Origin: an uncultured Clostridia bacterium | GTDB lineage: Bacteria; Bacillota; Clostridia; Christensenellales; CAG-314 | Reading direction: 5' to 3' | Assembly: GCA_947625115.1 (NCBI GenBank) | Contig: CANQND010000003.1 | Location: 4,738 to 68,737, forward strand | DNA: 64,000 nt | In this document: positions 23,217 to 23,945 of the stretch, piece after piece | How positions within the stretch are numbered: position 1 is the stretch's first letter | How the letters are laid out: the number at the start of each line of letters is the position of its first letter | The notes under the pieces: model-generated | The model's input: the letters and a program-made list of their open reading frames with translations, nothing else | Told to the model about the DNA's origin: nothing | Database searches by the model: none | Program-made: the position numbers and the translations under genes

Positions 23217-23945
23217 GTGATTACTGTTGGATTGATAGGTCAAAGCGGATTGAAAGATAAATTGCAGGAAAACGAAGAGTTCAAGGTGGTTTTCGACGTG
23301 GAGGGCAAAGACGCGCGAAAATACTTGGACGAACAACTCCCCGATGTTGTCATAACCGAACTGATAATGAGCGGCGAGGACGGATACGCCCTTATGGAAA
23401 AATATCAGGAAGCAAAGTTCATCGTTGCTTCGGAATTGAAAAGCGAAGTTTTCGTCATCAAAGCATTGGAACTCGGAGCCAAATACTATCTTGTCAAACC
23501 GCTGGAATACAGCGTGTTGGAACAGCGCATTGTAAACGTTTACGAGGGCGAACGTTTGGGCGGCAAAGTGGTGCGCAAAAAGAGCGTTTCGGAAAAGACT
23601 TTGGACGAGCGTATCAGCAGTATTTTTGTAAGCGTCGGGATACCCGCGCACATAAAGGGCTATCAATTTTTGCGCGAGGGAATCAAACTCGCCGTAGACA
23701 ATCCACCTATCATCAACGCCATAACAAAGAGTCTTTATCCGTCAATCGCAAAGCGTTTCAACACCACTCCGAGCAAAGTGGAGCGCGCAATTCGACACGC
23801 GATAGAGGTCGCTTGGAACAGGGGTAAAATAGAAAACATCAACAATATTTTCGGCGTTAAGGTTTACAATTCTTCCGAAAAACCCACCAACGGAGAGTTC
23901 ATAGCGTTGCTTGCGGACAAAATGCTTTTGGAATGCGCTTACTGA
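23217..23945 (+). CDS. spo0A: sporulation master regulator Spo0A with atypical receiver domain
   Basis: C-terminal Spo0A signature [16 protein letters not shown]...[31 protein letters not shown]...[14 protein letters not shown]. GTG start follows AAAGGAGAG, with an in-frame TAA at 23187-23189. Confidence 0.9.
   Translation: [242 protein letters not shown]

Follow-up and report, generated by a model that had tools for sequence, protein, structure and literature searches.

A probable Spo0A orthologue with an aspartate-less receiver in Christensenellales that probably works without phosphorylation

Introduction

In textbook accounts, endospore-formers take the decision to sporulate through graded phosphorylation of Spo0A. 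To our knowledge, kinases, phosphatases and the phosphorelay act on a single aspartate of Spo0A in every species studied. A gene in the 64-kb stretch of DNA analysed here (the window) encodes a Spo0A-like protein with glutamate in place of this aspartate and raises the question of how such a regulator would work. If it is not phosphorylatable, the sporulation decision could be wired in other ways, for example by expression level, autoregulation or other input, and structural and biochemical studies would gain a Spo0A that is 'phospho-free' by nature. Metagenomic surveys are concerned as well, as they take the presence of spo0A as a marker of sporulation potential (PMC11536998). Our reading, to which we assign a probability of about 0.6, is that the gene encodes the lineage's Spo0A orthologue and that its aspartate-less pseudo-receiver works without phosphorylation.

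Identity of the gene

23217..23945, plus strand: spo0A orthologue, 242 aa, GTG start and TGA stop (open reading frame, TIGR02875, Pfam and AF2)
23200-23208, upstream of the spo0A GTG: ribosome-binding site AAAGGAGAG

The encoded protein matched Spo0A_C (Pfam PF08769) with 3.9e-40 over residues 133-235, covering model positions 1-103 of 104, and Response_reg with 9.3e-12 over residues 12-105 (45.5 bits against a cutoff of 30.2). The NCBIfam equivalog model for Spo0A, TIGR02875, was matched with 215.9 bits, barely over its cutoff of 200, and the N-terminal 17 model positions stayed unaligned. Judged by these domain and family matches, the reading frame is Spo0A, which agrees with the first-pass annotation made from the sequence.

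That annotation had also claimed that the N-terminus cannot be extended, and this holds. Upstream of the GTG the frame is closed by a TAA at 23187-23189, and the nine codons in between include no ATG, GTG or TTG. As the start is further preceded by the ribosome-binding site and homologues begin at the identical residue with the motif MI(T/K)(I/V)GLIGQ, a longer N-terminus or an alternative start was rejected.

Errors of sequencing, assembly or gene calling were considered as a source of the unusual receiver. The GTG start is the sole unusual feature of the gene call and nothing else was found in favour of such an error. The identical protein occurs with the same neighbours on contigs from four independent samples and its substitutions recur in ~100 homologue clusters and in 26 GTDB species; the ribosome-binding site, a conserved promoter and a confident AF2 fold point the same way. 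An artefact, including the mis-assembly named earlier as a possible objection, is therefore rejected as vanishingly improbable.

Domains and receiver pocket

23217..23546, plus strand: aspartate-less receiver, residues 1-110 (AF2, Foldseek, dN/dS)
23553..23585, plus strand: disordered inter-domain linker, residues 113-123 (AF2 pLDDT <50)
23613..23921, plus strand: residues 133-235, Spo0A_C domain for DNA binding and transcription activation (Pfam match given above)

The AF2 model of the whole protein has a mean pLDDT of 87.4. In this model, the receiver adopts the CheY-like (beta-alpha)5 fold and was matched by Foldseek to the N-terminal domain of Spo0A (1qmp) with TM 0.83-0.85. Its secondary structure elements were predicted with pLDDT >90, namely, beta1 (2-7), alpha1 (12-17), beta3 (44-47), beta4 (68-72), beta5 (88-93) and alpha5 (98-110). 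Helix alpha1 has 6 residues (12-17) compared to 12 (13-24) in the canonical relative P0099, both taken from predicted folds. It is the helix by which receivers dock on kinases and phosphotransferases. The C-terminal domain matched 1lq1 and 1fc3 at ~1e-38, and Foldseek superposed it on chain D of the Spo0A-DNA complex 1lq1 with TM 0.93, an rmsd of 1.3 A and 56% identity. Its recognition helix is invariant across the aligned sequences.

23358..23360, plus strand: GAA codon of Glu48, which aligns with the phospho-acceptor Asp56 of B. subtilis Spo0A (phmmer, MAFFT, hmmalign)
23238..23243, plus strand: codons of Gly8-Gln9 in place of the Asp-Asp Mg2+-binding pair, adjoining a loop deletion (alignments)

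A Glu at the acceptor position had been proposed before, without a residue number. With phmmer, the stretch around Glu48 was aligned onto 'pdilllDiimp' of the solved Spo0A receiver 1dz3. Glu48 was likewise placed in the acceptor column by MAFFT with B. subtilis Spo0A and by hmmalign with a receiver HMM derived from relatives whose loop is canonical, so that no Asp appears there in the HMM alignment either. The HMM, MAFFT and structure-based alignments, independent methods, agree on this column. With a residue other than Asp at this position, the domain is an aspartate-less receiver by definition. Asp43 and Asp55 were rejected as alternative acceptors, as they align to conserved non-acceptor Asp residues of canonical Spo0A (PD and DG motifs).

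The earlier claim that Gly-Gln replaces the acidic pair was likewise borne out, Gly8-Gln9 standing at the position of the pair in the MAFFT alignments. The change goes beyond a substitution. The loop between beta1 and alpha1 is shorter by 3-5 residues, the figure varying with the aligner, and the segment from beta1 to beta2 counts 15 residues here and 20 in canonical relatives. The shortened loop holds no acidic residue, and the first one past beta1 is Asp14.

Conservation and selection

On the tree, the loop deletion maps as a single event of 5 residues, and the 126 sequences that share it form a monophyletic clade. This clade corresponds to Ca. Fimimonas (GTDB Christensenellales/CAG-314), a lineage of uncultured gut Clostridia with genomes of ~1.4 Mb. 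The acceptor residue of the 126 sequences is always acidic, with Glu in 102 and Asp in 24, which answers the earlier call to check conservation in relatives. About 12 acceptor changes were counted over the whole tree, mostly within the short-loop clade; as the tree is a neighbour-joining tree without support values, the number of Asp/Glu switches is approximate. The acceptor codons over 28 loci were GAA (19), GAG (7), GAT (1) and GAC (1), and this synonymous turnover of GAA and GAG indicates that Glu is maintained at the position. The receiver had a dN/dS ratio of ~0.08 and the C-domain one of 0.015; both values are rough because dS is near saturation. By this estimate both domains are under purifying selection, and the strong conservation suggests a continuing role of the receiver in regulation or dimerisation.

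23430..23441, plus strand: Ser72-Glu73-Leu74-Lys75, with Ser72 as the conserved Thr/Ser, Glu73 at T+1 and Lys75 at T+3
23496..23501, plus strand: Lys94-Pro95, the pocket lysine and the cis-proline (Lys in 120 and Pro in all 126 of the 126 short-loop sequences)

The phospho-switch positions Ser72, Lys94-Pro95 and Tyr91 are present, in line with the previous statement that the Ser/Thr and Lys are kept, and nearly all clade members retain such positions. Around the old pocket, the clade has conserved residues of its own. At T+1, Glu was found in 104 of the 126 short-loop sequences, where canonical relatives have Ala or Ser; at T+3, 111 of the 126 have Lys in place of the canonical Ser. An SGEDG loop is the third of these clade-specific features.

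Acceptor loss was also observed in relatives with an intact loop at the same syntenic locus, with Asp-to-Glu in L037 and the L050 group and Asp-to-Ser in L038. Together with the short-loop clade and the Asp-to-Glu change in P0101, these make at least five independent events. The first-pass annotation had treated the protein as an oddity of a single genome; it is instead a lineage-wide trait, and similar losses recur in the family. Among the 113 family representatives nearest to the query, 24 are without the acceptor Asp. With about one fifth of the nearest Spo0A representatives affected, marker calls based on spo0A may need inspection of the active site.

These data bear on the possibility that the protein is still phosphorylated, either at Glu48/Asp48 or elsewhere, through a rebuilt metal site (Glu73, Glu54) or by a Ser/Thr kinase acting on Ser72. 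The retention of Ser72, Lys94-Pro95 and the aromatic switch residue in nearly all members also fits a receiver that still senses a modification, the 24 members with an acceptor Asp might still be phosphorylated, and the new conserved acidic residues in the pocket loops (Glu73, Glu54) could rebuild a metal site. However, the loop deletion removed both of the canonical Mg2+ ligands, the docking helix alpha1 has only half its length and the repeated switching between Asp and Glu indicates that the acceptor chemistry is not selected. Phospho-Glu signalling, moreover, is known in no natural receiver (PMC4395418). We regard continued phosphorylation as improbable.

The phosphorylation independence proposed before thus stands in part. 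That the canonical site is not phosphorylated gains support because the loop with the Mg2+ ligands is deleted and not merely substituted, because alpha1 has half its usual length and because Glu/Asp switching would be intolerable to phosphotransfer chemistry. The further suggestion of a 'constitutively active-like' protein is not established. Asp-to-Glu alone was reported to be insufficient to make B. subtilis Spo0A constitutive, with further mutations being needed (Green et al. 1991, cited by PMC4395418), and therefore 'always on' is not implied here.

Locus, promoter and orthology

23056..23079, plus strand: terminator-like hairpin with T-run at the end of the upstream gene
23098..23104, plus strand: second, imperfect 0A-like box TACGACA (a sequence match alone, not conserved across species)
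23120..23126, plus strand: consensus 0A box TTCGACA, presumed autoregulatory, ~97 bp upstream of the start codon
23177..23185, plus strand: extended -10 element TGTTACAAT (block G-TA-AAT, invariant in the aligned upstream regions of 12 species)
23985-24013: promoter of the TetR gene, with a palindrome at 24021-24049
24077..24664, plus strand: TetR-family regulator gene, adjoining spo0A in the short-loop clade only
25556..25783, plus strand: zinc-ribbon gene, 75 aa, used as synteny marker (weak Pfam Zn_ribbon match)

Given the terminator-like hairpin at the end of the upstream gene, spo0A has its own promoter. TTCGACA was found upstream of spo0A in 19 of 28 short-loop species and in 28 of 53 canonical relatives, with 0.29 expected per group, and it forms an invariant block in the upstream alignment (12 species, 46% mean identity). 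Over the 64-kb window, 0A boxes were not enriched (11 matches against 13 expected); only their position-specific conservation ahead of spo0A is meaningful.

The locus adjoins the TetR gene and the dcw cluster; the usual neighbour of spo0A is spoIVB. The palindrome next to the TetR gene is single in the window, and a TetR operator at the spo0A promoter was thus rejected. A neighbouring gene product of 215 aa had no match in Pfam, NCBIfam or PDB. In 34 related loci with an intact loop, the zinc-ribbon family mostly follows spo0A at a distance of 68-470 bp; in 4 of these loci it precedes spo0A on the other strand. In the window and in the nearest relatives, the distance downstream is 1.5-2.4 kb.

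The gene might be an accessory paralogue, with a second, canonical and phosphorylated spo0A elsewhere acting as the master switch. The view of this genome is limited to 64 kb, and among 118 Spo0A-encoding genomes 11, each from the order Clostridiales, carry two or three copies (bioRxiv 10.1101/2022.02.25.481979). The other 107 of the 118 genomes in that survey are single-copy, and exactly one locus was kept for each of 80 related species, no locus having two spo0A copies, in a scan of the genome collection with peptide patterns taken from the window's Spo0A, which distant paralogues could escape. The gene occupies the locus of canonical spo0A in relatives, as marked by the zinc-ribbon gene, shares its upstream 0A box with them, passes the equivalog threshold of TIGR02875 and nests within the Christensenellales Spo0A tree; genomes of ~1.4 Mb also leave little space for redundancy. 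Since positional orthology and the conserved, presumably autoregulatory 0A box both weaken the concern, we consider a side copy rather improbable. The synteny shared with canonical spo0A and the conserved upstream box argue that the gene is the lineage's spo0A orthologue.

Sporulation context

The first-pass annotation had taken other genes of the window as signs that the organism still sporulates. A YabP/YqfC match was above its threshold, and those to YqfD, YtxC and SpoVD fell short of their curated thresholds; a collagen gene of BclA type carries a BclA_C domain. Sporulation, which would rest on the YqfC match, the sub-threshold YqfD and YtxC matches and the BclA-like gene, is unproven. No kinase, Spo0F or Spo0B was found among the called genes of the 64-kb window, which says little at that sample size.

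A further explanation is that Spo0A is a relic or was repurposed in a non-sporulating lineage, having lost its signalling input together with sporulation, and now controls other genes or decays. Related genomes of ~1.3-1.4 Mb are far smaller than the boundary of ~2.2 Mb for free-living spore-formers (PMC8035907; PMC3533761), most Christensenellales MAGs were called non-sporulating in a machine-learning survey (PMC12536801) and spo0A is present in some non-spore-formers (bioRxiv 10.1101/2022.02.25.481979); the sub-threshold matches to YqfD, YtxC and SpoVD fit this as well. Segmented filamentous bacteria (Cand. Arthromitus), however, are a small-genome exception among Spo0A-encoding bacteria (PMC3533761). 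The yqfC-yqfD pair, the YtxC-like gene and the BclA-like gene are retained, and the strong purifying selection on both domains means that the gene is not decaying. We hold this explanation to be unlikely, though of some weight. It concerns what Spo0A puts out and not how it is activated, and does not conflict with phosphorylation independence.

Discussion

Under our preferred reading of a phosphorylation-independent Spo0A orthologue, an ancestral deletion would have taken the beta1-alpha1 loop with both Mg2+-binding aspartates and shortened alpha1. The acceptor position would afterwards have needed only acidity, and Glu would have become fixed in the sub-lineage of the window. As the loop with the Mg2+ aspartates is deleted and the docking helix is shortened, we infer that this Spo0A could not be activated by His-to-Asp phosphotransfer. 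The intact Spo0A_C would still recognise 0A boxes, including the one upstream of its own gene. The receiver is probably a dimerisation or regulatory module, one state of which may be held by Glu48, Lys94, Ser72 and the Glu73/Lys75/Glu54 cluster. The amount of protein, through positive autoregulation, or some non-phosphoryl input would then determine its activity, and not a phosphorelay.

A broader version is offered tentatively, as one possibility that may well prove wrong: acceptor loss would be recurrent in host-associated, genome-reduced Clostridia, the short-loop receiver would have been rebuilt (Glu73/Lys75/Glu54) for a non-phosphoryl signal, and sporulation, or whichever programme Spo0A controls in these bacteria, would start without histidine kinase or phosphorelay.

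Comparison with known systems

The protein shares the architecture of receiver and Spo0A_C with canonical Spo0A from B. subtilis, Geobacillus stearothermophilus and Clostridioides difficile. The C-domain has 56% identity to 1lq1 (superposed at 1.3 A) and an unvarying recognition helix, the gene is preceded by a consensus 0A box, the switch positions (Ser/Thr, Lys-Pro and the aromatic residue) are in place and the match to TIGR02875 is above cutoff. It differs in having Glu for Asp56, a deleted Asp10-Asp11 loop, an alpha1 of half length, Glu and not Ala at T+1 and 242 instead of 267 aa. The locus also differs, adjoining a TetR gene and the dcw cluster, where the usual neighbour is spoIVB.

Like other aspartate-less receivers (ALRs), namely, ChxR of Chlamydia with its Glu as well as RitR, FrzS, HP1043 and GlnR, the domain keeps the receiver fold with the acceptor Asp replaced. 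In ALRs, Glu replaces the acceptor more often than any other residue (26%), loss of the second residue of the acidic pair is frequent and the pocket Lys mostly persists; the first residue of the pair is usually retained (65%), and ChxR, a Glu-type ALR, binds DNA constitutively (PMC4395418). In contrast to the known ALRs, the output domain here is Spo0A_C and not OmpR, NarL or other, and both residues of the pair are gone through the loop deletion. Within the openly accessible literature, acceptor-less Spo0A is undescribed save for a supplementary count of 7 ALRs among 391 Response_reg~Spo0A_C proteins, given as a count only (Maule 2015, S6 Table), and no ALR is described as master regulator of endospore formation.

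The protein also carries naturally the Asp-to-Glu change of laboratory alleles, i.e. NtrC D54E and the sad/D56 alleles of Spo0A. In NtrC, an acceptor Glu can mimic aspartyl-phosphate (Klose et al. 1993, cited by PMC4395418). Unlike these alleles, it has natural extra changes (loop deletion, Glu at T+1, Lys at T+3), which may or may not supply the needed further mutations. BldM and WhiI of Streptomyces are sporulation regulators as well, whose receiver function does not depend on canonical phosphorylation; they differ in belonging to the NarL/FixJ output family, to another phylum and to another kind of sporulation.

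Gene identity and receiver active site

The spo0A-type gene lies in the following neighbourhood:

22666-23049 (+): predicted membrane protein of 127 aa whose C-terminal tail is highly acidic, just 5' of spo0A
23217-23945 (+): spo0A, GTG start, 242 residues
24077-24664 (+): TetR-family regulator, directly downstream of spo0A
24773-25420 (+): 215-aa ORF flanked by the TetR and zinc-ribbon genes
25556-25783: zinc-ribbon gene downstream of spo0A, homologous to the spo0A neighbour of 34 related loci with a normal receiver loop

The ribosome-binding site AAAGGAGAG was found nine nucleotides 5' of the GTG. 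A longer N-terminus is impossible because an in-frame TAA lies at 23187-23189 with no ATG, GTG or TTG between it and the GTG, as the first-pass annotation had stated. The first residue is common to about 100 homologues, which open with MI(T/K)(I/V)GLIGQ. The gene had also been called a Spo0A orthologue, and its Spo0A identity is borne out by Pfam Spo0A_C (residues 133-235, 3.9e-40) and the NCBIfam equivalog model TIGR02875 (215.9 bits, cutoff 200); Response_reg covers residues 12-105 (45.5 bits, cutoff 30.2). In the AlphaFold2 model (mean pLDDT 87.4), a (beta-alpha)5 receiver predicted with confidence is followed by a disordered linker (113-123) and a C-domain made of helices. The receiver was superimposed on Spo0A-N 1qmp with TM 0.83-0.85 and the C-domain on the Spo0A-DNA complex 1lq1 with TM 0.93 and 1.3 A.

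Glu48 occupies the column of the phosphorylated Asp in all three alignments, namely phmmer against the solved Spo0A receiver 1dz3, MAFFT against B. subtilis Spo0A and hmmalign to a receiver HMM built on canonical-loop relatives. Gly8-Gln9 replace the Asp-Asp pair, and the enclosing beta1-alpha1 loop is 3-5 residues below normal length. The residues kept are Ser72 at the Thr/Ser position, Lys94-Pro95, and Tyr91 as the aromatic switch residue. The earlier sequence statements (Glu at the acceptor, Gly-Gln for Asp-Asp, Ser and Lys retained) were thus all correct.

Distribution and evolution of the receiver

The same protein, 100% identical and with the same neighbours, was present on contigs of four independent samples, and the Glu48 receiver is neither an artefact nor a one-off. 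Relatives were located in 80 GTDB species genomes, all from uncultured gut Clostridia (hosts: rabbit, chicken, goat, sheep, mouse and human). Candidatus Fimimonas is among them (GTDB: order Christensenellales, family CAG-314, genus CAG-1435); its genomes measure ~1.4 Mb (PMC8035907). NCBI taxonomy files it under Myxococcaceae (taxid 2840648), and some MAGs of this type are titled 'Corallococcus sp.' (loci L016, L017, L025 and L027). Their spo0A, yqfD and dcw cluster as well as GTDB place them in Clostridia, Christensenellales/CAG-314, and the Myxococcaceae placement looks like a taxonomy mapping error.

When placed on a neighbour-joining tree (198 sequences), the loop deletion mapped as a single event that sets off a monophyletic short-loop clade (n=126). 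Its acceptor column holds Glu in 102 and Asp in 24 sequences and no other residue, with several switches. Among 28 short-loop loci, drawn from 27 GTDB species and the window's own contig, 19 specify Glu48 with GAA and 7 with GAG, and the residue was therefore kept through synonymous change. An always-acidic column, Asp or Glu alike, is mismatched to the requirement of phosphotransfer chemistry and would fit a structural role, e.g. salt-bridging with Lys94.

By the Nei-Gojobori method, dN/dS between close relatives was ~0.08 over the receiver, with lower values in the linker (0.05) and the C-domain (0.015); these figures are rough since dS is near saturation. Counted from Ser72, T+1 is Glu in 104/126 short-loop sequences versus Ala/Ser in loop-intact relatives, and T+3 is Lys in 111/126 versus Ser. 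The post-acceptor loop reads M-S-G-E-D-G instead of L/M-P-x-x-D-G. These conserved, clade-acquired residues sit in loops around the old pocket. The receiver is remodelled, not decaying. Helix alpha1, the main phosphodonor docking helix in kinase-regulator and Spo0F-Spo0B complexes, spans residues 12-17 versus 13-24 in the canonical relative P0099, folded by the same method. Metal site, acceptor and docking surface have therefore changed together.

Many loop-intact Christensenellales Spo0As carry Asp-Asn, Asp-Ser or Asp-Thr after beta1 and keep the acceptor Asp (L044, L058, L074, L076, L083, L084 and others; alignment possibly off by one), which suggests a metal site relaxed across the order.

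Locus and 0A box

The small zinc-ribbon gene ('CPRCxLNYI...') adjoins spo0A at 34 loop-intact loci. At most of these it follows spo0A on the same strand at a distance of 68-470 bp; at four it is found upstream and in the opposite orientation. The acceptor there is nearly always Asp; L037 and L050 have Glu. In the window and its closest relatives it lies 1.5-2.4 kb downstream, with the TetR-family and 215-aa genes intervening. The consensus 0A box TTCGACA occurs ~96 bp 5' of the start in 19/28 short-loop species and, farther upstream, in 28/53 loop-intact relatives (0.29 expected by shuffling in each case). Together with the extended -10 element TGnTACAAT, it forms the sole invariant upstream blocks in a 12-species alignment of 46% mean identity. 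The gene therefore probably stands at the ancestral spo0A locus with a putative ancestral autoregulatory signal. A distant second spo0A copy may exist elsewhere in the same genome; the loci kept comprised one per species (80 species) and none with two copies, and 107 of 118 Spo0A-encoding genomes carry a single copy (bioRxiv 10.1101/2022.02.25.481979).

TTCGACA also occurs at 19521-19527, intergenic and 5' of the BclA-like collagen gene, and at 22407-22413, near the 5' end of the MgtE gene (20892-22466, -), which points away from spo0A. Both may be chance, and 0A boxes are not enriched across the 64-kb window (11 matches, 13 expected). The longest MgtE ORF opens ~65 codons upstream of the part aligning with relatives (e.g. 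L022), and its true start is probably farther downstream than the mechanical call.

The TetR gene stands beside spo0A in the short-loop clade only, weakly including the deep branches L030 and L031, and was not present at canonical spo0A loci. Its arrival coincides with receiver remodelling. Its promoter (23985-24013) is overlapped by a perfect 8-N13-8 palindrome (24021-24049) with no second occurrence in the window. The 215-aa ORF, Cys-rich at both ends, matched nothing in Pfam, NCBIfam or PDB; it is the neighbourhood's most conserved gene among the closest relatives, with 81-97% identity across species versus 80-94% for their Spo0A. The membrane protein gene is kept in 20 short-loop loci; it has no family match and was not seen adjoining canonical spo0A.

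Proposed mechanism

We consider the protein to be an orthologous Spo0A independent of phosphorylation, with a probability of roughly 60%. An aspartate-less receiver would be joined to an intact Spo0A_C domain. The loop deletion would have come first, with Mg2+ binding and partner docking lost; the acceptor would then have drifted between Asp and Glu until Glu settled in the window's sub-lineage, and Glu73, Lys75 and Glu54 may have been fixed around the pocket as compensating or new-function residues. The constrained receiver would probably serve dimerisation and might also take up a new regulatory input, with output set via the conserved autoregulatory promoter. The first-pass interpretation (phosphorylation independence, by analogy with other response regulators, where it is sometimes constitutive-like) is partly supported. 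Constitutive activity is not claimed, because Asp-to-Glu by itself was reportedly insufficient in B. subtilis Spo0A (Green et al. 1991, cited in PMC4395418).

Sporulation potential

The window encodes:

7299-7604: YabP/YqfC-family gene (Pfam 44.6 bits, cutoff 27)
7534-8670: YqfD homologue (1.7e-34, under the curated cutoff)
19807-20841: collagen-like gene with BclA_C domain
43755-44507: YtxC-like gene, weak match
dcw cluster: SpoVD-like PBP gene

This set suggests, short of proof, that sporulation genes are retained. The ~1.4 Mb clade genomes are far under the ~2.2 Mb boundary for free-living spore-formers (PMC3533761), which would count against sporulation, and a machine-learning survey called most Christensenellales MAGs non-sporulating (PMC12536801). 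No kinase or phosphorelay genes were found in the 64-kb window, a small and little informative sample.

Acceptor loss in other Spo0A-type proteins

Independent Asp-to-Glu changes were found at the same syntenic locus in loop-intact relatives (L037; the L050/P0109 group), with further changes in P0101 (Asp-to-Glu) and L038 (Asp-to-Ser). A representative library at 50% identity held 812 proteins with E <= 1e-30. Of the 113 receiver-bearing sequences analysed, 111 came from the best 150 representatives, and the other two were the query and the B. subtilis reference. The acceptor is Asp in 89 of them, Glu in 10, Asn and Gly in 5 each, Ser in 3 and Gln in 1. Although biased to the query's neighbourhood, this sample shows acceptor loss to be common in Spo0A-type proteins among uncultured Clostridia.

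Three or four tandem Spo0A_C domains without a receiver occur in P0121, P0122, P0124, P0127, P0229 and P0257, an arrangement of which we know no earlier description; P0135, P0138, P0172, P0206 and P0248 have two such domains. P0184, P0196, P0225 and others (~220-245 aa) combine Spo0A_C with an N-terminal half unmatched by the canonical-loop receiver HMM, some like badly degraded receivers, others unrelated or membrane. They may be further steps on the same path.

Comparison with known systems

Acceptor-less Spo0A is already known as a category, counted once: S6 Table of the 2015 survey of aspartate-less receivers (ALRs) lists 7 ALRs among 391 Response_reg~Spo0A_C proteins without discussion (Maule 2015). 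No description or analysis of such a Spo0A was found in the literature outside subscription journals. New would be the clade, its probable orthology, the loop deletion, the co-evolved pocket and the putatively retained autoregulation. For specialists, the surprise is a whole lineage's Spo0A without the Asp that is the common target of all known sporulation signalling. Its nearest counterparts are canonical Spo0A and the ALRs. The former shares its output domain, cis-element and fold but differs in the catalytic core; the ALRs share the principle, with Glu as the commonest replacement and ChxR as a Glu-type example.
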